Assembly (NCBI RefSeq): GCF_009831105.1
Contig: NZ_WUUQ01000002.1
Location: 1 to 32,000 of the forward strand
DNA from: Copranaerobaculum intestinale
GTDB taxonomy: Bacteria > Bacillota_I > Bacilli_A > Erysipelotrichales > Erysipelotrichaceae
Reading direction: 5' to 3'
Length of the DNA stretch: 32,000 nucleotides
Within the stretch, counting starts at the first letter, position 1; the number at the start of each line of letters is the position of its first letter. A program made the position numbers and the translations under genes. This document shows positions 6,876 to 31,889 of this stretch, piece after piece. The notes below the pieces were generated by a model, which made no database searches, had not been told where the DNA came from, and worked only from the letters and a program-made list of their open reading frames with translations.

Positions 6876-7646
6876 ATGGATCTTACACAATTTTATCAGC
6901 AAATCAATGAAGATGAACGTTTTCAAACTCCGGCTACTCAGGTGGAATTTCAAACGACGCTTCATTTTATCAATCAGTATGTGAAAGCGGACGATCGTAT
7001 TTTGGATATTGGGTGTGGCTATGGGGCTTACAGTCTGGAATATGCAAAACGCGGTTATGCGGTTGAGGCGGTAGATTTAATGACGCATCATATTGATGGA
7101 TTAAAGCAGAAAGCGAAACCGGGTATGCGTATACGAGCAAGGGAAGCTGATGCCAGGGATTTATCGATGTATGAGGATGAATCCTTTGATATTGTGCTGT
7201 GTCTTGGGCCCTTGTATCATCTTCACGAAATGCATGATAAGGCTGCCTGTATTGAAGAAGCGAAGCGGGTATGCAAGGCTGACGGGGTGATGATCTTCGC
7301 GTTTTTATCGAATGATATGTGTATGATCACTGAGCAGTTTGCGAATAATCCGCACCACTTCTCTAACGGTGAATATGATCGTACCACGTTTCATTTAACT
7401 GACAATGTTTTCAGCTTTATGACGATTGATGAGGCGCATGTACTCATGAAGCAGTGCGGGTTAAAGAAAATAACCGAGGCAGGAGCTGATGGACTTAGTG
7501 AATTGCTGCGGGATAAAGTGAATAACCTAAGTGAATCGGATTATCAAACCTGGCTGAATTTCCACCTTCACATATGTGAAAAGCCGGAAATGCTGGGAAT
7601 CAGCAATCATGTCTTATTTATAGCGAAAAAAGCAGGAGGAAGATAG
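6876..7646 (+). CDS. Class I SAM-dependent methyltransferase, substrate unknown
   Basis: Motif [17 protein letters not shown], acidic residue after beta-2 (AVEAVDL), and post-I/II motifs [23 protein letters not shown] (6861-6867). Confidence 0.85.
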
Positions 7647-7647
7647 T

Positions 7648-9030
7648 ATGTTTGAATTTATGACAGTAAGGGAATTGTACGAAATGGTGATGAGCGGCTC
7701 CCATGTGGAGCTGGATACAATGGAGTATGTACAGCTTCAGGGGTGGATTCGCACCAACCGCTCCAGCGGTAAACTGGGGTTCATTGAATTGAATGACGGT
7801 ACATATTTCCGCAATGTGCAGCTGGTTTATGTACATGAATTGAAAAACTTCGGCGAGGTGGAAAAATATCCGACCGGAGCGGCGGTAACGGTAACCGGCC
7901 GTTTCAAGCTCACTCCGGAAGGGAAACAACCATTTGAAATCGCGGTGACAGAAATGGTTTTGGAAGGGGATTGTGACCGAGATTATCCCCTGCAGAAGAA
8001 GCGTCACAGCTTTGAGTACCTGCGTGAGATCGCGCATCTGCGTCCGCGTGCAAATACCTTTTATGCGATATTCCGTCTGCGTTCTGTTTTGTCGATGGCG
8101 ATACACGAGTTCTTTCAGGATCAGGGCTTCGTCTACGTGCATACCCCGATTATCACTGGCAATGACGGTGAGGGAGCGGGTGAAATGTTTAAAGCAACGA
8201 TTCGTGACGATGCGAATTACGAGGAGGATTTCTTCGGCAAAGAAGCATTTCTGACGGTAACCGGACAACTTCATGTAGAAGCCTTCGCAATGGCTTTCCG
8301 CGATGTTTATACCTTTGGTCCGGCATTCCGCGCTGAAAATTCCAATACATCTCGGCATGCATCAGAGTTTTGGATGATTGAGCCGGAAATTGCTTTTGCG
8401 GATCTGGACGATAATATGAATCTGATTGAGGATATGGTGAAATACTGTATTACCTATGTATTAGAGAATGCTCCGGAAGAGATGAAATTTTTCAATTCCA
8501 TGATTGATAAGGGCTGTATCGAACGCATCACAAAGGTACGGGACAGTGAATTTAAACGTATGACCTATACTGAGGCGGTTGAGCTTCTGGAAAAGGCTGA
8601 TGTGAAATTTGAAAACAAGGTGTTCTGGGGCATGGATTTAAACTCCGAGCATGAACGTTATATCTGCGAACAGGTCGTGAATGGTCCAGTTTTCCTGATT
8701 GATTATCCAAAAGAAATCAAGGCTTTCTATATGCGTGTGAATGATGATAACAAGACGGTGGCGGCCTGCGATCTGTTGGTGCCCGGCGTCGGTGAACTGG
8801 TTGGCGGTTCCCAGCGTGAGGAGCGCTATGATGTTTTGGATCAGCGCATGAGTGAGTTGAACATGGGGAAGGAAAACCTACAATGGTACATGGATCTTCG
8901 CCGATACGGCGGCTGTAAGCACGCTGGTTTTGGCTTAGGTTTTGATCGCCTGCTGATGTATATGACCGGCATGCAAAATATCCGTGATGTAGAACCATTT
9001 CCACGCACACCAAGAAATTTAGAATTTTGA
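7648..9030 (+). CDS. asnS: Asparagine--tRNA ligase (class IIb)
   Basis: [21 protein letters not shown] (motif 2 region), GGSQREER, and [12 protein letters not shown] (motif 3). The ATG lies 1 nt after the methyltransferase stop. Confidence 0.95.
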
Positions 9031-11775: not shown

Positions 11776-13632
11776 ATGAAGTTTCAGATCCATCGTGGTA
11801 CGAAACATTATGGTGCAGATACAGTATTCGAGAATATTCAGTTTGAAATTCGCAATACTGAAAAAGTAGCGATCGTCGGACGCAACGGGTGCGGTAAAAC
11901 CACCCTGCTAAAGATTATCGCAAAAGAAGAAGAATTAGATGCTGGAGAGATTCATCAGGAAAATGGAGTGCGTATCGGTTATCTGGCGCAGACGACCTTT
12001 CAGGATGAAACTCACAGTGTTGAAGAAGAATTGAAAACCGCATTTACATCGATTCATGAGCTGGAGACGAAGCTTGCACAGCTGACTGCTCAAATGGCAG
12101 ACGATCACAGTGAAGAGCTTTTAAATAAATATGCGGATGTACAAAGCCGCTTTGAAGAAATGGGCGGTTATACCTGGGAGTCTGAAATGCGAAGCGTATT
12201 TACGAAATTTGGATTTCAGGAAGAAATGCTGAAGCGTACCCTGGATACCTTTTCCGGAGGACAGAAAACCAGGATTGCCTTTGTTAAGCTATTGTTATCC
12301 AAATCGGATATTTTGTTGTTGGATGAGCCGACCAATCATCTGGATCTGGAGACGATTGAATGGCTGGAGGGTTATGTAAAACGCTATCCGAAAGCGGTTG
12401 TGTTAGTATCGCATGACCGCATGTTTTTGGATGATGTGTGCGATGTTGTTTATGAACTGGAATACGGCGTGATGCGTCGTTACCCGGGAAATTACTCGAA
12501 CTATGTAGAAACCAAGAAAAGTGATATTGAACGTCAGAAAAGTGCTTATGCCCGTCAGCAGAAGGAAATTCAGCGGATGGAGGATCTCATTGAAAAATTT
12601 CGCTACAAGAAAAATAAAGCGGCATTTGCCCAGTCTAAGATCAAATATCTGGATCGGATGGAGCGTATCGATGATCCGAAATCAGATGATCAAACCTTTC
12701 ACGCTCGGTTTACTCCCCGCATCAAAGGCGGTAAGCGGGTGTTGGAGGTCAAGGATCTGACAATCGGCTACGATAAGCCGCTTTGTACGGTGAATCTGGA
12801 AATTCTGCAGGGACAGAAAATCGCGGTACTGGGGCCGAATGGCAAGGGTAAGTCAACGTTTGTCAAAACGATTATGAATCAGATACCGGCTCTTTCCGGC
12901 TCCTTCTTATACGGACATCAAATTGAACCGGGTTATTTTGATCAGGAACTGGCACAGTTTCATTCCACCAACACGGTGCTGGAGGAAATTTGGCAGGAAT
13001 ACAGTGATCTGACCCGCACTGAGGTACGTACGGCGCTGGGATGTTTTTTGTTCAGCGGTGATGATGTGTTCAAAACGGTGGATGTTTTAAGCGGTGGTGA
13101 AAAAGTGCGGCTGAGCTTTGTTCGGCTCATGCTGAATCAGCCGAATTTTCTGGTACTGGATGAACCGACCAATCATTTAGATCTAGCAGGCAAGGAAGCG
13201 CTTGAGGAATCGCTGCGCAATTATGAGGGTACTATGCTGTTTGTATCACATGATCGATATTTCATATCACAGCTAGCTACTGCTATTTTAGTCATCGACG
13301 AGGATGGTGCTGCGTATTATCCGTTAACGTATCGGGAATATATGGATCGCAATCAACCCGCGGCTGATAAAAACAGCCATAAAGTAAAAATAGAAGAGAA
13401 GCATAGTGAACCGAAGAAAACGGTAAATATCGGTCGGGAAGTGAAAAAGCTGGAAACTCAGATTGCACAATTGGAAGAGGAGATCACCGCTTTGCGAGAG
13501 CTTCGATTTGATCCGGAGTATTATCATGACTATCAAAAAATGCAGGAACTCGATGATAAGATCGATGATGTAAACAATGAAATAGAAAATCGGATGGCAC
13601 TATGGGAAACATACAGTGAACAACTGGGATAG
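11776..13632 (+). CDS. ABC-F family ATPase (Uup/YdiF-like; soluble, translation-associated)
   Basis: Two ABC cassettes: Walker A GRNGCGKTT and GPNGKGKST, signatures FSGGQKTR and LSGGEKVR, Walker B LLLDEPTNHLD and LVLDEPTNHLD. No TM domain. A basic interdomain linker and a C-terminal coiled coil are present. Confidence 0.9.
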   Translation: MKFQIHRGTKHYGADTVFENIQFEIRNTEKVAIVGRNGCGKTTLLKIIAKEEELDAGEIHQENGVRIGYLAQTTFQDETHSVEEELKTAFTSIHELETKLAQLTAQMADDHSEELLNKYADVQSRFEEMGGYTWESEMRSVFTKFGFQEEMLKRTLDTFSGGQKTRIAFVKLLLSKSDILLLDEPTNHLDLETIEWLEGYVKRYPKAVVLVSHDRMFLDDVCDVVYELEYGVMRRYPGNYSNYVETKKSDIERQKSAYARQQKEIQRMEDLIEKFRYKKNKAAFAQSKIKYLDRMERIDDPKSDDQTFHARFTPRIKGGKRVLEVKDLTIGYDKPLCTVNLEILQGQKIAVLGPNGKGKSTFVKTIMNQIPALSGSFLYGHQIEPGYFDQELAQFHSTNTVLEEIWQEYSDLTRTEVRTALGCFLFSGDDVFKTVDVLSGGEKVRLSFVRLMLNQPNFLVLDEPTNHLDLAGKEALEESLRNYEGTMLFVSHDRYFISQLATAILVIDEDGAAYYPLTYREYMDRNQPAADKNSHKVKIEEKHSEPKKTVNIGREVKKLETQIAQLEEEITALRELRFDPEYYHDYQKMQELDDKIDDVNNEIENRMALWETYSEQLG

Positions 13633-18092: not shown

Positions 18093-18121
18093 TTGAAATA
18101 ACCTGGATATTACGATATAAT
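18093..18121 (+). promoter_or_regulatory. Strong sigma-A type promoter of the opp operon
   Basis: -35 TTGAAA (18093-18098), 17-nt spacer, consensus -10 TATAAT (18116-18121), about 40 nt upstream of the oppA ATG. Confidence 0.6.
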
Positions 18122-18159: not shown

Positions 18160-20223
18160 ATGAAAAAGTTGTTAACTTTGTTCGTAGCCGGACTGATGGG
18201 CGTTTCATTGGTAGGCTGCGGCAGCGGCGACAGCAAGAAGGACACACTTGTTGTAGCAGCGACTGAGATGAATGGTGATTTCATCGACGGTTTTGGCAAC
18301 AGTTCTTATGATTTGGAAATCAAGAATGTGTTGCACAATTACTACATTACCTATGACAATGATGCTGAAGGTAATTTCGTAACAAACAAAACCATTCTGG
18401 ATGGTGAACCGGTAGCTACAAAAAATGCTGATGGTTCCAAGACCTACACTTTCAAAATTAAGAAAGGCTTAAAATGGTCAAACGGTTCTGATCTGACTGC
18501 AAAGGACTTTGTCTTCAACATCCTGCTGAGCGCTTCCGATGAATGGGTTGCTGCCTTAGCTGCAGATACGATGGGTGAAGGTCTGACCGGTTATGCGAAA
18601 TATCATGCTGGTCTGTCATCTCAGGAAGAAGGCGGTGTTGCTGATATCGTCTACAAACGTGAGACCGATAAAAAAATCCAGAAAGCCAATGCTGCTGATA
18701 ATGAAGTGAAAGTCAGCGATATGTATGATAAAGACGGATATGAATTGGATTCAGAAGGCAAGCGCATTCCGCTGTTAGGTTTCCAGACGGACGAAAACGG
18801 TGATCCTCTTTATGATGCTAATGGTGAATTAGTACCGGAATACCGTGAGAAAAAAGGTGACAACGGTACCTTTGAGGGCGTTAAGCTGAATGGCGATTAT
18901 GAATTCTCTGCAACGATCGCAGCAGATAAACTGCCATACTTCTTCGAGAAGAGCTATGTTGCATTTTATCCGAAACCGATGACTTATCTGGCAGGTAAGG
19001 ATGCAAAAATCGAATCATCAGAAAAAGGCGCAACTTTGGTAGGCGTAGATTTGAATGATGTTGCTCAGAAAACAAAATCTGAATATCGTACCAATCCAAA
19101 AGTTACCAGCGGCCCGTACAAGCTGATTAGTTTCAAAAACAAACAGGTAAAACTGACTAAGAACAAATATTTCAAGGGTGATTATGAAGGACATAAACCT
19201 TCCATTCCTAATATTTTAGTTAAGACAGTCAACCAGAAAACTGATATGGATCAGCTGCTGGCTGGTGAAGTAGATGTATTGACTGGCGTAGTAGAAGGTA
19301 AGAAGATTGAAAAAGCGAAGAAGAACTCCAGCGTTAAAGCAAGCTCTTATGCTCGTAACGGTTATGGTAACGTTCCTATTCACAATGACTTCGGTGCTAC
19401 AAAAGATCCTGCTGTTCGCCGTGCTCTGAACTACATTCTGGATAAAGACAATATCATTCAGACAGTTTTAGGCGGTTACGGTTCTACTGTTTACGGTGAC
19501 TATGGAACTGCACAGTGGATGTACCAGGAAAACAAAGAAGCTGTTGAAAGTGAATTGAATCACTACACTTACAATATCGAAAATGCAAATAAAGAACTTG
19601 ATTCTACGGAATGGAAGTTTGAAGCAGACGGTGTAACTCCTTGGGATGTTACCAAAGCTGAGAAAACAAAAGATTACTATCGTTACAATGCACAGAAACA
19701 GCCGTTGACGATCAACCACTTAGGTACTGAAGACAACACTGTTACCGATGCATTGGAAACTGAATTCTTAAAGAATTCACCAAAGGTTGGTATTAAATTC
19801 TCTATCGAGAGAACTGACTTTGCAGGTTTGATGGATAACTATTACAACGCTGCTCAGAAACCGGAAGCTCAGAGAAAATACAATACCTTTAATATGGCTA
19901 CTGGATTTACACCAGTTTACGATCCATGGAGTCAGGGATCCTTCGCTTCTATCTACGCAGGTACTTCTCTGAATCCTACCAACACAAAAGATGCTGAATT
20001 GGATAAGCTGATGCAGGAAATGCGTAACCTTGAACCAGATCAGCATGAGGAATTCTCAAAAGCATGGCTGGCATTCCAGAAACGTTTCAATGAAATTGTT
20101 CCGGAAATTCCAGTATACGCTAATGAATACTTTGATTTCTACAACGCAGATCTGAAAGGTTTCAAAACGGGACCTATGTCTTCTTGGTCTGAGATCATCT
20201 GTAACGTTAGTTGGGCAGAATAG
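18160..20223 (+). CDS. oppA: ABC transporter substrate-binding lipoprotein, family 5 (OppA/DppA-type), oversized at 687 aa
   Basis: Signal peptide with lipobox SLVG-C20. The family-5 SBP core includes KKGLKWSNGSDLTAKDFVFN. RBS AGGAGGG. Confidence 0.9.
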   Translation: MKKLLTLFVAGLMGVSLVGCGSGDSKKDTLVVAATEMNGDFIDGFGNSSYDLEIKNVLHNYYITYDNDAEGNFVTNKTILDGEPVATKNADGSKTYTFKIKKGLKWSNGSDLTAKDFVFNILLSASDEWVAALAADTMGEGLTGYAKYHAGLSSQEEGGVADIVYKRETDKKIQKANAADNEVKVSDMYDKDGYELDSEGKRIPLLGFQTDENGDPLYDANGELVPEYREKKGDNGTFEGVKLNGDYEFSATIAADKLPYFFEKSYVAFYPKPMTYLAGKDAKIESSEKGATLVGVDLNDVAQKTKSEYRTNPKVTSGPYKLISFKNKQVKLTKNKYFKGDYEGHKPSIPNILVKTVNQKTDMDQLLAGEVDVLTGVVEGKKIEKAKKNSSVKASSYARNGYGNVPIHNDFGATKDPAVRRALNYILDKDNIIQTVLGGYGSTVYGDYGTAQWMYQENKEAVESELNHYTYNIENANKELDSTEWKFEADGVTPWDVTKAEKTKDYYRYNAQKQPLTINHLGTEDNTVTDALETEFLKNSPKVGIKFSIERTDFAGLMDNYYNAAQKPEAQRKYNTFNMATGFTPVYDPWSQGSFASIYAGTSLNPTNTKDAELDKLMQEMRNLEPDQHEEFSKAWLAFQKRFNEIVPEIPVYANEYFDFYNADLKGFKTGPMSSWSEIICNVSWAE

Positions 20224-20259
20224 TATTATTATTTAATCTATTCATAGCACGAAAAGAGA

Positions 20260-20282
20260 GGATAGTTAAATATTAACTATCC
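20260..20282 (+). other. Intercistronic stem-loop between oppA and oppB
   Basis: GGATAGTTAA (20260-20269) / TTAACTATCC (20273-20282), a perfect 10-bp stem with no strong T-run. It could act as a partial terminator or mRNA stabiliser, as seen after SBP genes in many ABC operons. Confidence 0.5.
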
Positions 20283-20308
20283 CCTTTCTTCATGAGAGGA
20301 GTATATAC

Positions 20309-21265
20309 ATGATTAAGTATTCAATAAAACGCATCTTTTCGCTGATACCGGTTATCTTCGCGATCTCGATCATTTTATTCGGATTGAATAAGATTATGCC
20401 GGGGGATCCAGTGAATATGATGATCCCAACGAGTGCGAAACCTGAACAAAAGGAACAGCTGCGTAAAGAAATCACCGAACAGCTCGGTTTGGACAAATCG
20501 CTGCCTGAGCAGTATATCGCATGGGTAAGCAATGTTGCCAAAGGCGATCTGGGTTATTCGACATGGAAAAATGATGATGTGAAAAACGTCATCGCCGATC
20601 CGTTAAAAAATACCGTAATTTTGAATTTCTTCGTTTTGCTGTTGGCATTAAGTATTTCGATTTTAGCTGGAATTCGTTCCGCAATTAAGAAAAACTCAAT
20701 TATCGACCAGTTTTGGCAGGTGTTTTCACTTGTCTGCATGAGCGTGCCGACCTTCTTTATCGGCCTGTGCTTGGTTTATATATTTGCCTTGACATTAAAA
20801 TGGCTGCCGTCTAACGGCATGCCGGCTGATTTAAACAATATCGGTCAATGGGTGAGATATATGATTCTGCCAGTGCTGACGCTGACAATTACATCGCTGG
20901 CTGGTACGATCCGTTACGTTCGTAATGCAATGCTGGATGCTTTGTCGCAGGACTACATCCGTACTGCCCGTTCCAAGGGGTTAAGTGAGAAAGTGGTTGT
21001 CTATTCACATGCTTTCCGCAACGCATTGATTCCAATCGTAACTGTTGTTATTGCACAAATTTCAACCCTATTCAGCGGATCCATGATTACGGAAGCGGTA
21101 TTTGTATGGAACGGCTTGGGGCAGGTATTATTGACGGCGCTGAACCGCCGTGACGGCTTCTTGGTAATCGCCATGAATATGTTCTATGCGATTGTCTATT
21201 TGGCAAGCAACTTTATCGCGGATATCACATATGCATTGGTTGATCCGCGTATTAAATTAGATTAA
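20309..21265 (+). CDS. oppB: Opp/Dpp-type ABC transporter permease (OppB-like)
   Basis: 318 aa. N-terminal MIKYSIKRIFSLIPVIFAISIILF, and an EAA-like loop YIRTARSKGLSEKVVVYSHAFRNALIP. Confidence 0.9.
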   Translation: MIKYSIKRIFSLIPVIFAISIILFGLNKIMPGDPVNMMIPTSAKPEQKEQLRKEITEQLGLDKSLPEQYIAWVSNVAKGDLGYSTWKNDDVKNVIADPLKNTVILNFFVLLLALSISILAGIRSAIKKNSIIDQFWQVFSLVCMSVPTFFIGLCLVYIFALTLKWLPSNGMPADLNNIGQWVRYMILPVLTLTITSLAGTIRYVRNAMLDALSQDYIRTARSKGLSEKVVVYSHAFRNALIPIVTVVIAQISTLFSGSMITEAVFVWNGLGQVLLTALNRRDGFLVIAMNMFYAIVYLASNFIADITYALVDPRIKLD

Positions 21266-21276
21266 GGAGAGGTCTT

Positions 21277-23127
21277 ATGAACGACAAGAAAAAAGAAAAT
21301 GCATTTCAGAAGTTCGGACACTCTCTGAAATCATTGTTCAGCGGCGGTTTCTTTGGCCGTAAACAGTTGAATGTACTGGAAGAAGAGGAAATTCAGAGCC
21401 CGTCTAAGGTCATTATGAAGAACTTTCTTCATAATCGGCTTGCCCAGATCGGAATTGTCGGATTCTTATTCATCTTTTCATTCACCTTTATCGGATCGAT
21501 GTTCTATCCGATGGATCCGTTATATACAGAACCGCTGCTGCAGGATATCAAACCGGGCCGCGGCTATCTGAGCTATGACGAGGATTTGAATAAAGCCGGT
21601 GTAAAAGATATCCAATCGGGAGCGACCTTTACGATCGCGTTGGATAACGACGGCAAGGTGTATAGCTGGGGGCAGAATTTGGAAGGCGCCTTTGATATAC
21701 CAAGTGAAGTAACCGACGAAACAATTGCGAAGATCGCGGTCGGTGATCGTCATGCGCTGGCCTTGACAAAGAACGGTGAAGTGATCGGTTGGGGTTATAA
21801 CAACTTTAATCAGGATCAGCTTCCGTTTGAAGTCAAGAATCGTCTATTTGATCAGAAAGTGGTAGATATCTTCGCCGGTGACAAATATTCGGCAGTATTG
21901 ACTGATCAGAAAAAGCTGTATGTTTGGGGAAGCACGATGACCAATCATCTTGATATTGTACCGGATGAGTATCAGGGACATATCAAGGAGGTTCGCACCT
22001 CTACCTACAATATGCTGCTGTTGCTGGATGATGGCAGACTGGTTCCGCTCGGTGTTAGCGGCAGTCCGTTAACGGATAATATCCCGAAGAAGATCGCCAG
22101 CGGCGAATTGAAAGTTAAGGATTATGCGATGTCCTTCCGTAACGCGGTAGTGCTGGACGATCAGGGAAAGATCCATGTTTGGGGCTCGACGGATAATGGA
22201 CTGCTGAATGTACCGAAGATCAAAGAAAAGGTCATATCTGTTGCCGGTGCCAAGAATGCATTGTACGCGGTTGGTGAAAGCGGTAAGGTTTATGCATGGG
22301 GTTCTGATGCACTGAAGGAAACAAATGTTCCTGCGGATGCAAAGGGCACTAAAAAAGTATATGCGAGCTATTTCCAAATGTATGCGGTCAACGATGATAA
22401 TAAAGTGATCGCATCTTGGGGAAACAATGGTTATCTGCTGGGTACGGACGGTACCGGACGTGATGTCTTTATCCGTTTGATGCACGGCGGTAAAGTAACG
22501 CTTCTGGTCGGCGTAATTGCTGTATTGATTTCTGCATTTATCGGTGTGCTCATCGGTATGGTTTCGGGATTCAAGGGCGGCTGGCTGGATAATCTGCTGA
22601 TGCGTCTGACCGAGATCATCACTTCGATTCCGTTTATGCCATTGGTGATTACCTTATCTTCATTCATCGGAACGCAGATGTCTTCCGATAACAAAATGTA
22701 TCTGATCATGGTTATTCTGGGACTGTTAAGCTGGCCGCCGCTGGCGCGTTTAGTTCGTTCGCAGATTTTGATCGAGCGTGAAAAGGATTTCGTTCTCGCG
22801 GCGCGGGCTATGGGAATCAAGGAACACAGTATCGTGCTTCGCCACATCCTGCCTAACGTTATCAGTATGGCAATCGTGGATATGACACTGAATTATGCAA
22901 TCATGATGCTTCAGGAAGCTGCACTGTCATTCTTGGGCTTCGGTGTTCAGCCGCCAATGCCGTCATGGGGCAATATGCTGAATGCGGCACAGGACTCAAC
23001 GGTTATACAGTATTACTGGTGGCAGTGGATCCTGCCGGCGGTATGCGTACTGATTGCCGCCCTGAGCGTTAACCTGATTGGTAATGCTCTGGGTGATGCG
23101 ATTGATCCAAAGGCAAATGAGAAGTAA
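21277..23127 (+). CDS. oppC: Opp/Dpp-type ABC permease (OppC-like) carrying a roughly 280-aa RCC1-like repeat insertion after TM1
   Basis: 616 aa, whereas OppC is typically about 300 aa. TM1 spans about residues 55-77. The canonical OppC motif LGTDGTGRDVFIRL appears only at residues 388-401. It is followed by 5 TM helices and the EAA-like loop FVLAARAMGIKEHSIVLRHILPN. Confidence 0.9.
   Translation: MNDKKKENAFQKFGHSLKSLFSGGFFGRKQLNVLEEEEIQSPSKVIMKNFLHNRLAQIGIVGFLFIFSFTFIGSMFYPMDPLYTEPLLQDIKPGRGYLSYDEDLNKAGVKDIQSGATFTIALDNDGKVYSWGQNLEGAFDIPSEVTDETIAKIAVGDRHALALTKNGEVIGWGYNNFNQDQLPFEVKNRLFDQKVVDIFAGDKYSAVLTDQKKLYVWGSTMTNHLDIVPDEYQGHIKEVRTSTYNMLLLLDDGRLVPLGVSGSPLTDNIPKKIASGELKVKDYAMSFRNAVVLDDQGKIHVWGSTDNGLLNVPKIKEKVISVAGAKNALYAVGESGKVYAWGSDALKETNVPADAKGTKKVYASYFQMYAVNDDNKVIASWGNNGYLLGTDGTGRDVFIRLMHGGKVTLLVGVIAVLISAFIGVLIGMVSGFKGGWLDNLLMRLTEIITSIPFMPLVITLSSFIGTQMSSDNKMYLIMVILGLLSWPPLARLVRSQILIEREKDFVLAARAMGIKEHSIVLRHILPNVISMAIVDMTLNYAIMMLQEAALSFLGFGVQPPMPSWGNMLNAAQDSTVIQYYWWQWILPAVCVLIAALSVNLIGNALGDAIDPKANEK
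21598..22428 (+). repeat. Seven tandem protein-level repeats of about 40-45 aa (RCC1/ATS1-like beta-propeller blades) inside oppC
   Basis: The blade pattern [hydrophobic strand]-D/N-x-G-K/E-[VIL]-x-x-WG recurs with WG at residues 131, 172, 217, (LG 259), 302, 341 and 381. Examples: ALDNDGKVYSWGQN, ALTKNGEVIGWGYNNFNQDQLP, VLTDQKKLYVWGST, VLDDQGKIHVWGSTDNGLLNVP, AVGESGKVYAWGSD, AVNDDNKVIASWGNNG. Confidence 0.7.
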
Positions 23128-23137
23128 GGAGGCCATT

Positions 23138-24121
23138 ATGAAATTACTTGAAATTAATAATCTCCATACTTATTTTGAAACCAAGCGTGGTTTGATCAAA
23201 GCCGTGAATGGTGTAACCCTGTCTTTGGAAGAAGGACGCACCCTTGGTATTGTAGGAGAATCCGGCAGCGGTAAAAGCCAGACTGCCATGAGTATTTTAA
23301 AATTGTTTGAAAAGAATCAAAAAATCTATGAAGGCGAAATCAAATTCATGGGTAAAAATATTTCAGATTCAACCGCGAAAGAAATGTCTCATATTCGCGG
23401 AAATGACATCTCGATGATCTTCCAGGAACCGATGACATCGCTGAACCCGATTTTTACGGTTAACCGTCAGATATCAGAGGTTTTGCGCCTGCATCAAGGC
23501 ATGTCCAAGAAAGAGGCGGAGGAACAGAGTATCAAAATGCTGGAAAGCGTTAAGATAGCCAACCCCCAGCGGGTAAACAAGAGTTATCCGTTTGAACTCT
23601 CAGGCGGAATGCGTCAGCGTGTTATGATTGCCATGGCTTTGGCTTGCAAGCCAAAACTGCTGATTGCCGATGAACCGACAACTGCTTTGGATGTTACGAT
23701 TCAAGCGCAGATTCTGCGTTTGATGAATGACCTGAAAGCAGAAACCGGAACATCAATTATCTTTATCACTCACGATCTAGGGGTTATAAATCAGATGGCG
23801 GATGATGTAGCGGTTATGTACTGCGGTCAAGTAGTTGAAACGGCTCCAGTAGATAAGATCTTCCAAAAGAGTGAATACATTCACCCATATACGGAGGGGC
23901 TGTTAACATCCATTCCACGTTTGGATTCGGATCCGAAAAAACGCCTGGATGCCATACCGGGAGCGGTGCCTCATCCGTTGAATTTACCAAAGGGCTGTAA
24001 GTTTGCTCCTCGCTGTAAATATGCGACCGACAAGTGCCGTAATGAAGAACCAGAGCTGAAAGCTGTATCTCCGGATCACAATATCCGCTGTTTCTTTCCG
24101 GTAAAGAGAGGTGACAAATAA
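23138..24121 (+). CDS. oppD: Opp/Dpp-type ABC transporter ATP-binding protein (OppD-like)
   Basis: Walker A GESGSGKSQ, signature LSGGMRQR, Walker B LLIADEPTTALD, and C-terminal oligopeptide-type region HPYTEGLL...PKGCKFAPRC. RBS AGGAGG precedes ATG 23138. Confidence 0.9.
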   Translation: MKLLEINNLHTYFETKRGLIKAVNGVTLSLEEGRTLGIVGESGSGKSQTAMSILKLFEKNQKIYEGEIKFMGKNISDSTAKEMSHIRGNDISMIFQEPMTSLNPIFTVNRQISEVLRLHQGMSKKEAEEQSIKMLESVKIANPQRVNKSYPFELSGGMRQRVMIAMALACKPKLLIADEPTTALDVTIQAQILRLMNDLKAETGTSIIFITHDLGVINQMADDVAVMYCGQVVETAPVDKIFQKSEYIHPYTEGLLTSIPRLDSDPKKRLDAIPGAVPHPLNLPKGCKFAPRCKYATDKCRNEEPELKAVSPDHNIRCFFPVKRGDK

Positions 24122-25527
24122 TGGAAAACAATAAAGACATGTTAATCAGTATCAATAATCTGAAAAAATATTTCCCATTAAAAAAGTCAAGCTTTTTACA
24201 GAAAGAAAAATTGTATGTAAAGGCAAATGATGGTATTACGATCAATATTCACCGCGGTGAAACATTCGGTTTGGTTGGTGAATCGGGATGCGGTAAATCC
24301 ACCATGGGACGTGTCCTGCTTCAGCTGTATCCGCAAACGCAGGGTAATACGGTGTATTACGGCCGTACGATCTATGAATATAAGCCTGCTTATGTTGCGA
24401 AATTTCTGAAAAATCTGCCATCTCATGTATCGAAGCTAAAAAGCCTGCAGGAGAAGGCATCGAAAATTACGGAAACAGAAGATGTTCATAATTTTGCGGC
24501 AGATGATGCCGATCGCGTTTATCACCAACTGGCACATTTAGCCGGTGGTCTGATTTACAGTAAGGATCTGTCCAAAGCAGGACAACTGCTGTATGAGGAG
24601 TACCAGGCTGGCTGCAAAGTAGTGGAAGCCGCAGCCAATATGGAAACTGACAGTGCGGCAAAAGCTGCTTATGAACAAGCTGTTGAAAAGCAGGAGGAGC
24701 TGCGCCGCCAGCTTGATAAGCTGCGTTCTGACTGTGAACAGAATGAAGCTTTCCTGAAAGCTGAAAAGCTATGGGATCATGGAATTGATCTAGGGCTATT
24801 GAGTAAAGAAGAACTGCGTATCCTTCGCCAAGATATTCAGATTATCTTCCAGGATCCGTATTCTTCTTTGAATCCTCGTCTTACGGTTGGCCAGTTGATT
24901 TCCGAACCGCTGGTTGGCCACAAAAAATTTAAAAAAGGTTCTCAGGAGCTGGAGGATTATGTGATTGAAATTATGGAGAAGTGCGGTCTTGACCGATACT
25001 TTATTCATCGTTATCCTCACCAGTTCTCAGGCGGACAGCGTCAGCGTATCGGAATTGCCCGCGCGTTGGCTCTGAATCCGAAATTCATCGTTTGTGATGA
25101 AGCAGTATCTGCCCTGGACGTGTCCATCCAGTCGCAGATTCTGAATCTGCTTCAGGATCTGAAACAAAAAGAGAATCTTACGTACCTGTTTATCTCACAT
25201 GACTTGAGTGTGGTAAAATATATCTCTGATCGAATAGGGGTCATGTATCTTGGAAATATGGTGGAATCTGCACCATCAGAAAGAATTTTTGAAAATCCAC
25301 TGCATCCATATACTGAGGCATTATTAAATGCTATCCCTACCACCGATGTTCATAATAAAGAACTGCAGATTTTGGAAGGAGATATTCCAAGCCCTGTCAA
25401 CCCTCCAAAGGGCTGTAAATTCCACACGAGATGTAAATTTGCATTTGATAAGTGTAAGGAGTGCACACCGGATTGGGTTGAAGTAGAACCGAATCATTTC
25501 GTTGCCTGTCATTTGAGGACCAAATAG
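24121..25527 (+). CDS. oppF: Opp/Dpp-type ABC transporter ATP-binding protein (OppF-like) with a roughly 140-aa insertion
   Basis: Walker A GESGCGKST (residues 53-61), but the Q-loop region IIFQDP appears only at 241-246. Signature FSGGQRQR, Walker B FIVCDEAVSALD, and C-terminal HPYTEALL...PKGCKFHTRC. 468 aa, whereas OppF is typically about 320-340 aa. Confidence 0.9.
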   Translation: MENNKDMLISINNLKKYFPLKKSSFLQKEKLYVKANDGITINIHRGETFGLVGESGCGKSTMGRVLLQLYPQTQGNTVYYGRTIYEYKPAYVAKFLKNLPSHVSKLKSLQEKASKITETEDVHNFAADDADRVYHQLAHLAGGLIYSKDLSKAGQLLYEEYQAGCKVVEAAANMETDSAAKAAYEQAVEKQEELRRQLDKLRSDCEQNEAFLKAEKLWDHGIDLGLLSKEELRILRQDIQIIFQDPYSSLNPRLTVGQLISEPLVGHKKFKKGSQELEDYVIEIMEKCGLDRYFIHRYPHQFSGGQRQRIGIARALALNPKFIVCDEAVSALDVSIQSQILNLLQDLKQKENLTYLFISHDLSVVKYISDRIGVMYLGNMVESAPSERIFENPLHPYTEALLNAIPTTDVHNKELQILEGDIPSPVNPPKGCKFHTRCKFAFDKCKECTPDWVEVEPNHFVACHLRTK

Positions 25528-25530
25528 GCT

Positions 25531-25728
25531 ATGCGCAAAAGTTTAAAAGAGAAAATAGATGCACGGATGAAAACAGATGAAGAGCTTCAAAAAAAATTTG
25601 ACGATGTCGAGTTTGAAAAGCACGATGGTCTGGCAATGTTCATTGCAGCGATGATTACCTTCGTTCCAATCATTTTGGCGATTTTGCTGGTAATCTGGCT
25701 GCTGTTGTGGTTTGTTTTCTTACGTTAG
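25531..25728 (+). CDS. 65-aa protein with a charged N-terminus and a C-terminal TM segment, last cistron of the opp operon
   Basis: The ATG lies 4 nt after the oppF stop. Hydrophobic stretch LAMFIAAMITFVPIILAILLVIWLLLWFVFL. The operon terminator follows immediately. Confidence 0.5.
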   Translation: MRKSLKEKIDARMKTDEELQKKFDDVEFEKHDGLAMFIAAMITFVPIILAILLVIWLLLWFVFLR

Positions 25729-25755
25729 AGAGTGATAATTCACTCTCTTTTTTTA
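25727..25755 (+). terminator. Rho-independent terminator of the opp operon
   Basis: AGAGAGTG (25727-25734) / CACTCTCT (25741-25748), followed by T7. Confidence 0.8.
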
Positions 25756-25804
25756 GGTTTTATAATGAAGCTTGCGTATATGTAAGCAAAACGGGGGGAG
25801 AAGC

Positions 25805-26128
25805 ATGCTTACACGGAACTTAAATGAAAAAGACCGCCATCAGCTCATGCTTTATCTGGGACGGATGTATCGGAGCAGTGCCTTAAAAAATAAGCGTCAC
25901 AGCATGTACGAGATTCATGAGGATACGGCACAGTATATCAATCTGGAAGTCGCCTATGAATTCGATCAGATATTGAGTGGCATGGAACCATTTGAACAGG
26001 AGATTTTAAGGAATGACTATCTGCTTCCTAAAGCCGCCGGATGGTGGAAAAACAAGTATGCAAAAGCAGCGTATCTACAGCATAAAAGGTCCGCAATTAC
26101 TACATTTCTGGATTGCTTATACACCTGA
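25805..26128 (+). CDS. Hypothetical 107-aa protein; the C-terminus resembles a sigma-70 region 4 / ArpU-like HTH (weak)
   Basis: RBS GGGGGGAG precedes ATG 25805, and a TATAAT sits at 25761-25766. The C-terminal pattern EQEILRNDYLL...WWKNKYAKAAYLQHKRSAITTFLDCL looks like small HTH regulators. This is a by-eye impression only. Confidence 0.55.
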   Translation: MLTRNLNEKDRHQLMLYLGRMYRSSALKNKRHSMYEIHEDTAQYINLEVAYEFDQILSGMEPFEQEILRNDYLLPKAAGWWKNKYAKAAYLQHKRSAITTFLDCLYT

Positions 26129-29060: not shown

Positions 29061-30050
29061 ATGGAGGATCAAGCATTAATCAATCTGGAAACAATGATTT
29101 CTCAAGAATACAGTAACATCGCCGGTATTGTCGTGCGTAAAAATGATCAGCTGATATATGAGAGATATTGGAACGGTTGTACAAAAACAAGTACACTTCA
29201 TATATATTCAGTAACCAAGAGCATCTTGTCAATGTTGATCGGAATTGCTTTTGATAAAGGATATCTGATGGATATTAATCAGCCGGTACTGGATTTCTTT
29301 CCAGAGTATACAGTAAAGAAAAAGGAAAAAACAATTCAGCACGTCACCTTGAGCAATATGTTAACGATGACTGCTCCCTATACATACAAAATTGGACCCT
29401 ACCTCAAATATTTCACCAGTGAGGATTGGGTGACGTTCTCCCTGAACTTACTGGGCGGGAAAAAGGCGATTGGTGAATTCTTTTATGCGCCGCTGATTGG
29501 ATTGGATATATTATCGGGAATTCTGATGAAGGTCACTCATACCAGTGTACGGGAATTTGCGCAGGAGCACTTATTTTCTCCACTCGCCATCACCGTAAAA
29601 AATTCAATATATTTTCAAAGTAAGCAGGAGCAGCTTGCATTCAATAAGGCAAGGGATATCAGTGGCTGGGCAGTTGATCCTAAGGGGGTGAATGCTGCTG
29701 GCTGGGGGCTGACGCTTTCGGCTCGGGATATGGCAAAGCTGGGACAGCTGTATCTCAACGGCGGAATTTGGAACGGGAAACAGATCATTTCAAAAGCATG
29801 GATTGAGGAAAGTACCAAGGAGCATTCCCGATGGGATAAAATGAAGCTTCGATACGGTTATTTATGGTGGCTGGATGTTGGGGAAAAGAATAGCTTTGCG
29901 GCAATGGGGGACGGCGGTAATGTCATTTATGTTCAGCCTGATAAAAAAATCGTGATATCGATAATGGGGTTCTTTAAGCCAAATGCTAAGGACAGCATCG
30001 ATCTGATTGCAACACATATCAGACCGTTGTTTGATGCAATAGAAATATGA
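29061..30050 (+). CDS. Serine hydrolase of the beta-lactamase/transpeptidase-like fold (class C / esterase-like)
   Basis: S-x-x-K motif YSVTKSILSML near the N-terminus, plus YGYLWW and GDGGNVIYV motifs. No signal peptide is seen. RBS GGAGGG lies 10 nt upstream. Confidence 0.85.
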   Translation: MEDQALINLETMISQEYSNIAGIVVRKNDQLIYERYWNGCTKTSTLHIYSVTKSILSMLIGIAFDKGYLMDINQPVLDFFPEYTVKKKEKTIQHVTLSNMLTMTAPYTYKIGPYLKYFTSEDWVTFSLNLLGGKKAIGEFFYAPLIGLDILSGILMKVTHTSVREFAQEHLFSPLAITVKNSIYFQSKQEQLAFNKARDISGWAVDPKGVNAAGWGLTLSARDMAKLGQLYLNGGIWNGKQIISKAWIEESTKEHSRWDKMKLRYGYLWWLDVGEKNSFAAMGDGGNVIYVQPDKKIVISIMGFFKPNAKDSIDLIATHIRPLFDAIEI

Positions 30051-30134: not shown

Positions 30135-31889
30135 TTATTTTGTAAGCTCCAAAAATTCCTGAATACGTGCTTCCGCAGTCTTTAATGCGGATACCCAGAA
30201 GGCTTTATCGGTAACATCGATATCTGCCATTTTCGCAACATCTTCAACACTGGATACGGTGGTCGCATGAAGCAGAGCCCGATATTTCGGTACAAAGCTT
30301 TCACCCTCCTGCTGATATTTCACAATCAATCCACGGGCAAACAGTCCGCCGAATGCATATGGAAAGTTGTAGAAGCTTAAATCACTTCCATAATAATGAC
30401 TCTTGCACACCCACATGTACGGATGCAAATACTCTTGATCAAGGCCATCACCATATGCTTTGCGCTGACATTCAAGCATTAGTTCCTTTAAATCCTTGGC
30501 AAATAGGAAACGATCCTTACTTGCTTCAAATACTGCTGTTTCAAACAGGTAACGGGAATAAATATCACACATGATCTGGGTGAGATCCTGCAGTTGATTC
30601 TCAATCAGGGCAATTTTTTCTTCACCTTCTGCCGCATCGATCGCCGCATTCATAATGATATTTTCGTTAAAGGTTGACGCTGTTTCTGCCACCGGCATAC
30701 TGTAATCCCAATTCAACGGCAAATGGTCTTCAATCTGCTTGCCATGGTAGGCATGACCGAGCTCATGAGCCAGGGTTACCACATCGCCGATCGCGCCGTC
30801 AAAATTGGTCAGAACCCGACTGGCTTTGAGGTAAGGTAAATTACTGCAGAAAGCGCCTCCGACTTTTCCTTTACGCGGGAAGAAGTCAATCCAATCCTCA
30901 TCAAATGCGGTTTCGATCATATCGGCTAAATCCGGGGCAAATCCTTTAAAATGATCAATCAGATAGGCCTTGGCGTCTTCAATCGTAAAGGATTGATGGG
31001 ATGAACCAAGCGGTGCGAACAATTCGAACCAAGGAAGCCCGTTTTTATATCCCAACAGTTCTCCCTTACGTTTTAAATACGCATGGAAAACCGGCATATA
31101 TTCATCCATAGCCGCAAACATCGCATCAAGCGTTTGCCGCTGCATCCGACTTTGATGAAGTGTCATATCAAGTGGAGAATCGTAGCCGCGCAGACTACTG
31201 ATTGTGTTTACTTGGGATTTGATCTCATTTAAAGAAAAACTGATTGCATCATCAATTTTTTCATATGCTTTCAATTCAGCCTCATACGCTTTTTTACGAG
31301 TATCTTTATCTTCACTGTATGCCATGTTTCGAATTTCGGATAGCGTGACTTCTTTTCCTTCGTACTCGGCAGTGACAATACTTGTCAGGTAAGACTGCAT
31401 GTCTCCCCAGGCAGTACCTCCGGACAAATCCATTTTCGTGATTACTTCCTCAACCTCATCACTCAGCAGATATTTGGCATCCGCTTTGGTTTGGATAAGC
31501 ATGTATTGATAAGGCTGCAGTGCCTCATCCTGAGCGATCATGGCTTCCAAATCATCAATATTCGCAATAAAGCGATTTATCATCGCAATGGCTTTTGATG
31601 ATTCACTCAGCTTATGCTGAAAGCGATTCATCTGTGCCGTTGTTTCACTGTCCTGGGTATTTGTACTCTGACTAAGAGAAATAAAAGAGCCCAGTTTTGA
31701 TGACAGAGTTACCATTTCTTCAAGAACCTCAATAATATTTGTCAATGTTGCGTGCTTGTCATTCTCATTCTTCCAGTCCGGAAAAGCATTGATTTTATCT
31801 GTGCATTGATCCAGCTTCTGAAAATCCTGTTCATAAGCTGGGTCATCATATCCCTTATACAGACTGTCTAAAGACCAGCGTTCATTCAT
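30135..31889 (-). CDS. pepF: Oligoendopeptidase F (M3B family metallopeptidase)
   Basis: 584 aa with zinc motif HELGHAYH. The N-terminal MNERWSLDSLY and overall length are typical of PepF. Confidence 0.95.
   Translation of the reverse strand: MNERWSLDSLYKGYDDPAYEQDFQKLDQCTDKINAFPDWKNENDKHATLTNIIEVLEEMVTLSSKLGSFISLSQSTNTQDSETTAQMNRFQHKLSESSKAIAMINRFIANIDDLEAMIAQDEALQPYQYMLIQTKADAKYLLSDEVEEVITKMDLSGGTAWGDMQSYLTSIVTAEYEGKEVTLSEIRNMAYSEDKDTRKKAYEAELKAYEKIDDAISFSLNEIKSQVNTISSLRGYDSPLDMTLHQSRMQRQTLDAMFAAMDEYMPVFHAYLKRKGELLGYKNGLPWFELFAPLGSSHQSFTIEDAKAYLIDHFKGFAPDLADMIETAFDEDWIDFFPRKGKVGGAFCSNLPYLKASRVLTNFDGAIGDVVTLAHELGHAYHGKQIEDHLPLNWDYSMPVAETASTFNENIIMNAAIDAAEGEEKIALIENQLQDLTQIMCDIYSRYLFETAVFEASKDRFLFAKDLKELMLECQRKAYGDGLDQEYLHPYMWVCKSHYYGSDLSFYNFPYAFGGLFARGLIVKYQQEGESFVPKYRALLHATTVSSVEDVAKMADIDVTDKAFWVSALKTAEARIQEFLELTK

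Follow-up and report, generated by a model that had tools for sequence, protein, structure and literature searches.

To our knowledge, hardly any accessory domains have been described on the extracytoplasmic side of type I ABC importers apart from MalF-P2 and the fused binding domains. The importers OpuA and GlnPQ have substrate-binding domains fused to the permease. In the case of MalF-P2, the substrate-binding protein (SBP) is bound with a Kd of 7-22 uM and the contact is maintained through the whole cycle (PMC6906923, PMC4245157). The stretch between TM1 and TM2 lies on the periplasmic side in the structures of E. coli DppC/OppC; that of DppB, likewise periplasmic, is the element engaging the binding protein, and DppC partners DppF in DppBCDF (PMC12136057).

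The window, i.e., the whole stretch of 32,000 nucleotides analyzed here, contains an opp operon in which the TM1-TM2 loop of OppC has grown from some 20 residues into a propeller of about 285. No prior description of propeller-bearing OppC permeases was found in the literature, and the proteins of this family are named solely "ABC transporter permease subunit" in NCBI/UniRef. The novelty claimed in the initial annotation, which was made from the sequence alone, stands insofar as the family is uncharacterized, but the architecture is not unseen, being common in Bacillota under this generic name. The features of the operon are listed in Table 1.

Table 1. Features of the opp operon in the window, with residue numbers referring to the protein named in each row.
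Feature	Position	Strand	Basis or remarks
Promoter-like site, TTGAAA-17-TATAAT	18093..18121	+	11/12 consensus matches; no more than a consensus match
OppA-like lipoprotein SBP, 687 aa	18160..20223	+	SBP_bac_5; lipobox LVGC
OppB permease, 318 aa, ordinary size	20309..21265	+	BPD_transp_1_N and BPD_transp_1
OppC cytoplasmic N-terminus, residues 1-54	21277..21438	+	Basic, 10 K/R in total
OppC TM1, residues 55-77	21439..21507	+	Hydropathy, AF2 helix, OppC_N
OppC linker from TM1 to propeller, residues 78-108	21508..21600	+	Conserved, mean conservation 0.57
OppC seven-bladed BLIP-II/RCC1-like beta-propeller, residues 109-382	21601..22422	+	Pfam, AF2, Foldseek
OppC propeller blades 1-4	21601-21672, 21724-21795, 21859-21930, 21982-22053	+	AF2 strands
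OppC propeller blades 5-7	22114-22185, 22231-22302, 22354-22422	+	AF2 strands
OppC pre-TM2 motif LGTDGTGRDVF, residues 388-398	22438..22470	+	Canonical; alignment
OppC permease core TM2-TM6 with EAA coupling loop, residues 397-612	22465..23112	+	BPD_transp_1, Foldseek
OppD ATPase, 327 aa, ordinary size	23138..24121	+	ABC_tran and oligo_HPY; gene call on twin contig L045
OppF ATPase, 468 aa	24121..25527	+	ABC_tran split in two stretches
OppF insert, about 144 aa, residues ~77-220	24349-24780	+	After the Walker A strand
Single-pass membrane protein, 65 aa, unannotated, conserved	25531..25728	+	Motif E[FL]EK.D..AM.IAA.ITF.P, then TM helix
Terminator-like hairpin and T-run closing the operon	25727..25756	+	9-bp stem, 4 GC pairs, TTTTTTT tail

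Architecture of the OppC Protein

The OppC-propeller protein is encoded by an uninterrupted reading frame of 616 aa (21277..23127, + strand), which comprises, from the N- to the C-terminus, a basic N-terminal region, TM1, seven RCC1_2-type repeats, the LGTDGTGRD motif, and the OppC/DppC core. The reading frame, the hydropathy profile, and the alignment agree with the anatomy originally described, including the WG/LG positions and the occurrence of LGTDGTGRDVF after the repeats, followed by a core of five TM helices. The WG pairs at residues 131, 172, 217, 302, 341, and 381 and the LG at 258-259 register all seven repeats, with little or no variation at the W/G positions, either among 40 members of the family or in an alignment of 34 sequences from three clades. 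The proline motif initially noticed after several repeats takes the form x(8-10)-[IVL]-P following the WG in six of the seven. Residues 40-54 include three K/R and no D/E, while residues 1-39 have pLDDT values below 50 in the AF2 model. The hydropathy of TM1 peaks at 2.17 over residues 54-79, where AF2 places a helix (54-76), and no 19-residue window exceeding 0.92 was detected in the hydropathy scan of residues 85-385. In the linker, P93-G94 is invariant in A1 and P93 likewise in A3; in the LGTDGTGRDVF motif, G389, D391, G394, R395, and D396 are invariant in the family alignments.

The Pfam matches to OppC_N (27.5 bits, cut-off 23.9, residues 41-86) and BPD_transp_1 (115.5 bits, cut-off 26.4, residues 423-613) flank those to RCC1_2 (PF13540; 119.2 bits, cut-off 22, E 3.8e-35, four stretches) and RCC1 (PF00415; 30.5 bits, cut-off 21.7), as the initial annotation had predicted. 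WD40_RLD also matched the propeller (E 5.7e-35), the architecture in Pfam accessions being PF12911-PF13540/PF25390-PF00528, and no carbohydrate- or wall-binding Pfam signature was found in the protein. It is a genuine OppC/DppC-type ABC importer permease: the operon (18160..25527) encodes a cluster-C SBP, OppB, and two oligo_HPY ATPases, this Opp synteny holds in 14 related loci, and E. coli OppC was matched at E 1.3e-65, along with M. tuberculosis OppC and E. coli DppC (Foldseek, hmmsearch). None of the NCBIfam equivalogs (Opp4C, OppC, DppC, NikC, and others) was reached, the best score being that of Opp4C (306.4 bits, below 350), so that the protein belongs to a distinct subfamily. Elsewhere in the window, a 618-aa ORF (11776..13632) considered as a possible paralog is instead an ABC-F ATPase, and an Amidase_3 is located about 6 kb upstream of the operon.

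Fold and Location of the Inserted Domain

The blades of BLIP-II are themselves three-stranded. In the AF2 model of the OppC monomer, the insert forms a closed seven-bladed propeller, as had been anticipated, with three strands per blade (DSSP) and pLDDT values of about 85-94; the period of the blades is 39-45 residues, and the modeled strands (109-382) agree with the interval 21598..22428 (residues 108-384). The three strands and roughly 40 residues per blade that characterize the compact BLIP-II subclass are thus present in the model. Foldseek matched the insert to BLIP-II, UVR8, RCC1, and the HERC2 RLDs with E-values of 1e-14 to 1e-20. The superposition on BLIP-II (1jtd_B, 3qhy_B, and 3qi0) gave TM scores of 0.80-0.85 at 27-30% identity, with an rmsd of 2.3 A over 261-271 columns, spanning the whole of BLIP-II (268-273 residues), and the profile of the propeller family matched BLIP-II at E 8e-30. 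Based on these models, the insert is a predicted RCC1-superfamily propeller of the compact, three-stranded BLIP-II class. The RCC1/ATS1-type blades first proposed were therefore correct at the level of the superfamily, but the nearest class is BLIP-II and not eukaryotic RCC1/ATS1. The tight binding and inhibition of class A beta-lactamases by BLIP-II would not be expected of the OppC propeller, and nothing in its context supports such an activity.

The propeller lies between TM1 and the LGTD motif preceding TM2. The charge distribution at the N-terminus follows the positive-inside pattern, which is consistent with an extracytoplasmic propeller, and the equivalent region is periplasmic in the E. 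coli structures cited above; both points favor the location outside the membrane suggested initially. The propeller is displayed on the outer face of the membrane, directly above the OppC half of the translocator. Since the propeller is extracytoplasmic, a Ran-GEF activity like that of RCC1 proper is implausible, and the similarity between the folds is also lower in this case (TM ~0.5).

Distribution of the Family and Organization of the Operon

The same architecture was found in hundreds of 90%-identity clusters from Erysipelotrichaceae, Anaerococcus/Peptoniphilaceae, and Ruminococcaceae/Clostridia, with complete genomes of Anaerococcus grown in culture among the further clades. More than 120 clusters with 50-95% identity have an identical domain order. 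The exact protein and operon of the window are present on two independent contigs. All seven blades and the length of the domain have been kept across three Bacillota classes, down to about 35% identity. A recombinase gene adjoins the Ruminococcaceae operon (L048). The contig scan, in which one peptide pattern was used, yielded at least 10 fused loci; loci L011-L044 contain unrelated RCC1 proteins with no Opp neighbors. A search of the representative library with the insert only gave 69,716 matches, the top 150 of which were mostly giant multi-RCC1 proteins. A false fusion resulting from a frameshift, a mis-assembly, or a wrong gene call is practically out of the question: it is already refuted by the continuous reading frame, the identical operon on two contigs, the domain order shared by so many clusters, and the confident AF2 modeling of both insert junctions, and nothing was found in its support.

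The propeller protein is part of a conserved module of six genes encoding a lipoprotein OppA, OppB, the OppC-propeller protein, OppD, an insert-bearing OppF, and a small single-pass protein. Three of these features are conserved additions: the OppC propeller, the OppF insert of about 144 aa, and the single-pass protein of 43-70 aa after OppF. OppB is retained in all the related loci, and a long OppF (457-543 aa) is kept in all the operons of the family. When OppF was compared with the second ATPase domain of M. tuberculosis Rv1281c (8j5q_D), residues 7-76 were aligned and the alignment resumed at 221. OppF is orthologous to E. coli OppF/DppF (E 5e-94 and 6e-88, versus about 1e-55 for OppD/DppD). 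Homologs of the small protein occur directly 3' of OppF in L001-L008 and L046 and 3' of OppD in L010, and genes of 65 aa were called at the equivalent position in L045, L049, and L050; no Pfam family matched the small protein. The terminator-like hairpin begins at the stop codon of this small ORF, and the promoter-like site, the top-scoring one in the region scanned, lies 39 nt 5' of the OppA start codon. In the riboswitch and T-box search for clues to the substrate, nothing was detected above the threshold; a Termite-leu match (E 0.31) overlapping the terminator was attributed to chance.

The OppA model has an overall pLDDT of 87.6, and values of 50-80 across an insert at residues ~153-235. 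The nearest folds are B. subtilis AppA, L. lactis OppA, and NikZ, and the nearest solved sequence is 9p48_A. The initial annotation had suggested that the propeller might be a docking platform for an oversized OppA. The oversize itself does not hold for the family, since the 83 extra residues, modeled with low confidence, are lineage-specific and present in a fraction of 0.09-0.16 (some 10-15%) of the family OppAs, but the OppA subfamily is strictly coupled to the propeller: it accompanies a propeller-bearing OppC in all 15 of the operons sampled, from three Bacillota classes.

Possible Functions of the Propeller

By analogy with MalF-P2, the propeller might be a platform holding the lipoprotein OppA, which is the reading we tentatively favor. 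As a protein-protein docking platform, it would capture its cognate membrane-anchored OppA, hold it beside its docking site, raise the local OppA concentration, and orient OppA for engagement with the scoop region of OppB. MalF-P2 provides a direct precedent of a folded permease-loop domain binding an SBP; BLIP-II, which has the nearest fold among solved structures, is secreted by bacteria and, according to the PDB titles, known for binding other proteins tightly, and the coupling with one OppA subfamily points in the same direction. Since the N-terminal region of OppB is normal, standard SBP docking can be expected. However, an SBP that is a lipoprotein is already tethered to the membrane, and it is not evident why it should require another means of retention, the extra OppA segment of the window is not conserved in the family, and a simple docking role leaves the OppF insert and the small membrane protein unexplained.

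The mean Kimura distance amounts to 1.11 in the propeller and 0.97 in OppA, as compared with 0.36-0.62 in the TM core and the ATPases. The two faces of the propeller do not differ in conservation, scaffold residues alone being conserved, and the family as a whole shows no fixed patch of conserved surface. The similar pace of the propeller and OppA, together with the absence of a conserved patch, is easier to reconcile with an interface between co-evolving proteins than with a fixed site for a small ligand. The same data might also be accounted for by a stabilizing cap or shield on the periplasmic face of OppC with no specific partner, protecting it for example from proteases, phage, or bacteriocins, since only the repeat scaffold is conserved and the propeller evolves faster than the rest of the complex. 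This passive role is highly unlikely, however, because the retention of the blades and of the length of the domain indicates sustained purifying selection on a costly 285-residue domain, and the strict association with a single OppA subfamily suggests that the two are functionally connected.

The lack of a face or patch conserved throughout the family also argues against one fixed ligand. This weighs on the rather doubtful possibility that the propeller is an envelope or ligand anchor, or a secondary receptor, binding an extracellular ligand other than OppA, such as long peptides, a polymer of the cell wall, or a protein or glycan from the host or the environment, and thereby placing the transporter in the wall or pre-concentrating the substrate near the pore. 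Propellers of the superfamily do serve as extracellular ligand-binding ectodomains (the ectodomain of ACR4, a plant receptor kinase, matched the family profile at E 4.9e-06), the carriers are thick-walled Gram-positive organisms, and the Anaerococcus operon is directly preceded by a choline-binding Amidase_5 wall hydrolase. This neighbor is not recurrent, however: the Erysipelotrichaceae loci are flanked by PFK/GerA and PtsI in an ordinary synteny, and the absence of carbohydrate- or wall-binding signatures mentioned above also speaks against an anchor. A muropeptide/amidase link was considered as a recurrent association and rejected, given the plain PFK/GerA...PtsI synteny of the other loci.

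In the mirror-tree analysis of 13 operons, no OppA-specific signal was detected, which does not favor the docking of OppA; the partial correlations (OppA 0.41, OppB 0.52, and OppF 0.57) constitute weak evidence, confounded by shared history. That the propeller distances track OppF and OppB most strongly after controlling for phylogeny would suit a transmembrane regulatory axis, in which the propeller would detect a signal from outside the cell or the loading state of OppA and relay it via OppC to the insert-bearing OppF, possibly with the small single-pass protein, so that the ATPase is gated and the system works as a regulated importer or transceptor. It can also be argued that all three conserved additions are on one half-transporter (OppC propeller, OppF insert), that DppC and DppF are paired in DppBCDF (PMC12136057), OppF here being orthologous to OppF/DppF, that the small TM protein is probably co-transcribed, and that MalF-P2 is reported to communicate substrate availability to MalK. 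We consider this axis unlikely nevertheless, as the argument is purely architectural, the correlations have the weakness just stated, and accessory inserts in the ATPases can be merely structural. It is distinctly unlikely that the propeller, the OppF insert, and the small protein together form a sensing or regulation axis in which the propeller recognizes something besides the transported peptide. The tests of co-evolution, surface conservation, and riboswitches did not single out any of these functional hypotheses.

The family is widespread in human- and animal-associated Firmicutes, including those of the gut and skin (Erysipelotrichaceae, Anaerococcus, and Ruminococcaceae), and cultured, sequenced carriers (Longicatena caecimuris DSM 29481 and Anaerococcus spp.) make it experimentally accessible. 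The roles of the propeller, the OppF insert, and the small protein could reveal new means of recruiting binding proteins or regulating import; a sensing axis, if it exists, would place these transporters in a new subclass of type I ABC importers, that of ligand-gated importers or "transceptors." Knowledge of these roles could also identify a target that is exposed on the surface of gut and skin anaerobes and specific to certain lineages, and the six-gene module provides a recognizable signature for annotating proteins that bear only the generic permease label.

Comparison with Known Systems

The OppC propeller belongs to the same superfamily as RCC1, UVR8, the HERC2 RLD, RPGR, and the "crinkly" ectodomain of ACR4 (Foldseek E 1e-14 to 1e-17), and ACR4 uses this fold as the ectodomain of a membrane protein. 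The eukaryotic RCC1-like domains differ, however, in their longer, four-stranded blades (360-400 residues in all; TM scores of merely 0.5-0.64 to the OppC propeller) and their intracellular roles as GEFs, photoreceptors, or E3 ligases, with no link to transport. BLIP-II of Streptomyces exfoliatus (1jtd, 3qhy, and 3qi0) is closer, being likewise a compact seven-bladed, extracytoplasmic bacterial propeller with blades of about 40 residues, but it is a free secreted protein, whereas the OppC propeller is spliced into a permease loop, and the carrier organisms and gene contexts are unrelated.

Among the importers, OpuA, GlnPQ, and the MalE-MalF fusion of B. bacteriovorus also have an extracytoplasmic module covalently joined to the transmembrane domain. 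In these importers, the module is itself of the periplasmic-binding-protein fold and stands in for a free SBP, whereas the OppC insert has the propeller fold and OppA is encoded by a separate gene. MalF-P2 of E. coli MalFGK2-E is a lineage-restricted folded extracytoplasmic domain in a permease loop of a type I importer, as is the case here, but it is an Ig-like domain of about 185 residues located between TM3 and TM4 of MalF, whereas OppC has a seven-bladed propeller, inserted between its TM1 and TM2. Since the insert does not have an Ig-like fold homologous to that of MalF-P2, it may be at most an analog and not a member of this class, the binding of the SBP being suggested by the analogy. 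The permease itself resembles the OppC/DppC proteins of Opp/Dpp-type (PepT family) type I importers from E. coli (8z21_B and 8z1v_B) and M. tuberculosis (8j5q_C), with profile E-values of 1e-65 to 1e-47: it shares OppC_N and BPD_transp_1, LGTDxxGRD, the EAA loop, and the six TM helices with them and is likewise encoded together with OppA/B/D/F in an operon, and the family profile aligns to E. coli OppC from residue 79 of 8z21_B onward; whereas the canonical proteins have about 290-300 aa and a short TM1-TM2 loop, the protein described here carries a propeller of about 285 residues in that very loop.

An RCC1-type propeller within OppC

The 616-aa OppC-like protein is encoded by an uninterrupted ORF. 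Kyte-Doolittle hydropathy shows a single N-terminal hydrophobic segment (residues 54-79), values of at most 0.92 in every 19-residue window over residues 85-385, and a hydrophobic core starting at residue 397. Seven repeats were aligned on WG at residues 131, 172, 217, 302, 341 and 381 and on LG at 258-259. All the elements described in the initial annotation, the basic N-terminus, TM1 and seven repeats among them, were recovered in place, far above chance. As had been expected, RCC1_2 was detected in Pfam (119 bits versus a cut-off of 22, E 3.8e-35, in four stretches), as well as WD40_RLD (E 5.7e-35), with OppC_N (residues 41-86) and BPD_transp_1 (residues 423-613) on either side.

The AlphaFold2 model, based on 40 family members (mean pLDDT 81.5, pTM 0.72; pLDDT ~85-94 at residues 100-390), contains seven beta-strand triplets (109-132, 150-173, 195-218, 236-259, 280-303, 319-342, and 360-382) followed by the helical permease core. 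The top Foldseek matches in the PDB were Streptomyces BLIP-II structures (1jtd_B, 3qhy_B, 3qi0; E 2.5e-20 to 3e-19), with target-normalised TM 0.80-0.85, 27-30% identity and rmsd 2.3 A over 261-271 columns; the RCC1-like domains of UVR8, RCC1, HERC2, and RPGR ranked next (TM 0.5-0.64), and the C-terminal half resembled E. coli DppC, E. coli OppC and M. tuberculosis OppC. Profile searches against PDB sequences likewise matched BLIP-II (E 8e-30) and paired E. coli OppC residues 79-301 with query residues 382-612 (E 1.3e-65). Since the strand triplets, the Foldseek results and the profile matches agree, the insert is predicted to be a compact BLIP-II-class propeller with three-stranded blades, and the fold initially proposed was thus borne out. 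It takes the place of the ~20 residues separating TM1 from the LGTDxxGRD motif.

The N-terminus of OppC contains 10 K/R; the 15 residues preceding TM1 include 3 K/R and no D/E, and the 15 residues past it 1 K/R and 3 D/E. In the structures of E. coli DppBCDF and DppABCDF, the TM1-TM2 region is periplasmic in both permeases, and that of DppB forms a 'scoop motif' inserting into the DppA cleft (PMC12136057). In view of this homology and of the positive-inside N-terminus, we infer an extracellular position for the propeller, on the docking side for the binding protein; this fits the extracytoplasmic side assigned to it initially.

Organization of the operon and neighboring genes

The gene order is common to the 14 related loci examined (14/14), OppD and OppF being swapped in one of them (L010) only. 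The perfect palindromic hairpin in the OppA-OppB gap (10-13 bp stem, terminator-like score on each strand) may be an attenuator setting a high OppA:OppBCDF ratio, as in other opp operons. Upstream of OppA, neither the window nor ten related operons showed a riboswitch or T-box. The 118-aa ORF preceding ptsI has no Pfam match; weakly conserved homologues (20-37% identity) occupy the same position in related loci L009, L005, L004, and L007.

Coordinates of the features in the window
Feature	Position	Strand	Basis
ABC-F ATPase, 618 aa	11776..13632	+	Pfam-type domains
Strong promoter-like site	18093-18121	+	
OppA, lipoprotein, SBP_bac_5 family	18160..20223	+	Pfam
OppA N-lobe segment, residues ~153-235	18616..18864	+	
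OppA-OppB hairpin	20257..20285	both	
OppB	20309..21265	+	operon part
OppC with propeller	21277..23127	+	operon part
Repeats as initially delimited, OppC residues 108-384	21598..22428		
OppD	23138..24121	+	operon part
OppF	24121..25527	+	operon part
OppF insert, residues ~77-220	24349..24780	+	
65-aa ORF	25531..25728	+	operon part
Terminator-like hairpin, starting at the small-ORF stop codon	25727-25748	+	
118-aa ORF, between operon terminator and ptsI	25772..26128	+	
PF00144 beta-lactamase-fold serine hydrolase	29061..30050	+	
PepF-type M3 oligoendopeptidase	30135..31889	-	

The PF00144 hydrolase and the oligoendopeptidase are encoded downstream of the operon, at a distance of 3.5-6 kb. The former is not of the same family as the class A enzymes bound by BLIP-II, no connection of either gene with the propeller was found, and their nearness looks coincidental. 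The 618-aa ORF, nearly equal in length to the OppC fusion, was considered as its paralogue and rejected, as it encodes an ABC-F ATPase (ABC_tran twice, ABC_tran_Xtn, ABC_tran_CTD). Its neighbors (LicD, Amidase_3, OYE, and GerA) point to a spore-forming Erysipelotrichaceae-like genome.

Genuineness and distribution of the family

That the fusion is an artefact is scarcely conceivable: the ORF is continuous, the identical protein occurs in the same operon on two independent contigs, and homologues are numerous. Searching a collection of 5.8 billion proteins yielded 444 matches at E<=1e-10, and all 120 of those listed carry RCC1 and BPD_transp_1 domains, with 95-100% of the query aligned, 50-95% identity and lengths of 578-621 aa. 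The only names given among the listed matches are 'ABC transporter permease subunit' (Massilicoli timonensis, Erysipelotrichaceae) and 'peptide/nickel transport system permease protein'.

The fused gene is present in at least 10 GTDB species representatives, including Longicatena caecimuris DSM 29481, Erysipelotrichaceae MAGs and one Erysipelothrix MAG. Using the most divergent fused OppC (from locus L009) as the query, we reached a second large clade consisting of Anaerococcus and Peptoniphilaceae (650-660 aa), in which complete genomes of cultured species are represented. Three OppA relatives, two of them labelled Ruminococcaceae and Clostridia, likewise adjoin 622-624-aa OppC genes with RCC1/WD40_RLD inserts. 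The named carriers belong to Erysipelotrichia and Tissierellia (NCBI taxonomy); counting the Ruminococcaceae and Clostridia labels, the family covers no fewer than three Bacillota classes. Across clades, the W/G scaffold shows little or no variation in any of the seven blades. In Anaerococcus cruorum (L046/L047, 1020..3077 and 7001..8980), a choline-binding Amidase_5 wall hydrolase is encoded directly upstream of OppA, and OppC has a low-complexity cytoplasmic N-terminal extension, ~40 residues longer than that in the window. The amidase neighbor does not recur in Erysipelotrichaceae.

On the Ruminococcaceae contig (L048, 15612..17754), a large serine recombinase gene (Resolvase/Recombinase/Zn_ribbon_recom) and a TnpW-like gene directly follow the six-gene module. 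This hints that the module is on or beside a mobile element, a possible cause of its patchy spread across Bacillota classes.

OppF insert and small membrane protein

OppF is long in every family operon (457-543 aa versus ~330). In the window, its insert of ~144 aa, charged and helical-looking from the sequence, is located just past the Walker A strand, before the 'LRxxIQxIFQDP' segment, where solved OppF/DppF-type chains run unbroken. Directly 3' of the last ATPase gene comes a gene for a single-pass protein (43-70 aa) in which the motif E[FL]EK.D..AM.IAA.ITF.P precedes a hydrophobic helix. The unannotated 65-aa ORF of the window has a charged N-terminal half, the motif EFEKHDGLAMFIAAMITFVP and then a TM helix. 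Homologues (43-70 aa) occupy the same position in related loci L001-L008 and L010 and in Anaerococcus (L046), and 65-aa genes were called in contigs L049 and L050; every locus whose sequence extends far enough downstream encodes the protein, the Anaerococcus and Clostridia loci included. It matches no Pfam family and probably belongs to the transporter as its sixth subunit or regulates it.

The OppF of the window matches E. coli OppF/DppF at E 5e-94 / 6e-88, versus ~1e-55 for OppD/DppD, and by homology is their orthologue. Since the partner of DppC in DppBCDF is DppF (PMC12136057), the propeller-bearing OppC should have OppF as its ATPase, and the three additions (propeller, OppF insert, and small protein) would therefore all be on the OppC-OppF half of the transporter.

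Possible role of the propeller

In this conserved six-gene importer, OppC carries a covalently built-in, folded propeller of a protein-binding class on its predicted extracytoplasmic side, where it might serve as a docking or retention platform for OppA, after MalF-P2. That domain, Ig-like and ~185 residues long, is part of a MalF loop; it binds MalE at the N-lobe (Kd 7-22 uM) and keeps contact during the whole cycle (PMC6906923, PMC4245157). We favor this reading tentatively, by analogy. It is supported by the fold class, the known activity of BLIP-II being tight protein binding, and by the location, since in the sister permease it is the corresponding loop that engages the binding protein. 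The propeller and OppA are also the fastest-evolving parts (mean distances 1.11 and 0.97 versus 0.36-0.62 for the others) and surface conservation revealed no invariant patch on the propeller, which likewise supports docking. Against it, mirror-tree analysis showed no preference for OppA (partial r with the propeller 0.41 for OppA, versus 0.52 for OppB and 0.57 for OppF), and a lipoprotein already has a membrane tether. Docking alone also leaves the OppF insert and the small protein unexplained. Among the rival readings, an envelope or ligand anchor or a secondary receptor is unlikely, a transmembrane regulatory axis from the propeller to the OppF insert is rather improbable, and a passive structural cap is quite improbable.

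The presumed partner in docking, OppA, is a cluster-C binding protein (model pLDDT 87.6) with B. subtilis AppA, L. lactis OppA and NikZ as the closest folds and 9p48_A (562 aa) as the closest solved sequence. Its subfamily, down to 37% identity, adjoins a propeller-bearing OppC in all 15 operons sampled. The initial annotation linked the propeller to an oversized OppA. The excess lies mostly in an N-lobe segment (pLDDT 50-80), but since this segment is found in only 9-16% of family OppAs, usually ~600 aa long, the oversize is a lineage-specific trait, which rules it out as the family-wide reason for the propeller. In other members this site accommodates different inserts (the alignment swells to 1008 columns); it is therefore an insertion hot spot.

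Comparison with known systems

The features that define the OppC/DppC permease family and those of the RCC1/BLIP-II propeller superfamily are present, and the protein is a member of both. It lies outside all the named Opp/Dpp/Nik equivalogs, since no NCBIfam cut-off was reached (best, Opp4C, 306 bits versus 350). MalF-P2 is a possible functional analogue only, as its fold and loop differ. Nor does the protein belong with the SBD-fused permeases, since its insert lacks a binding-protein fold and a separate OppA gene is retained. Full-text literature searches pairing RCC1 with OppC or with 'ABC transporter permease' gave no results; the architecture is already in public databases under generic names and appears uncharacterised. 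A propeller-bearing OppC importer would surprise ABC-transporter specialists, and the cultured carriers allow its inferred function to be tested directly. The propeller, the OppF insert and the small membrane protein together define a distinct variant of the Opp-type importer.
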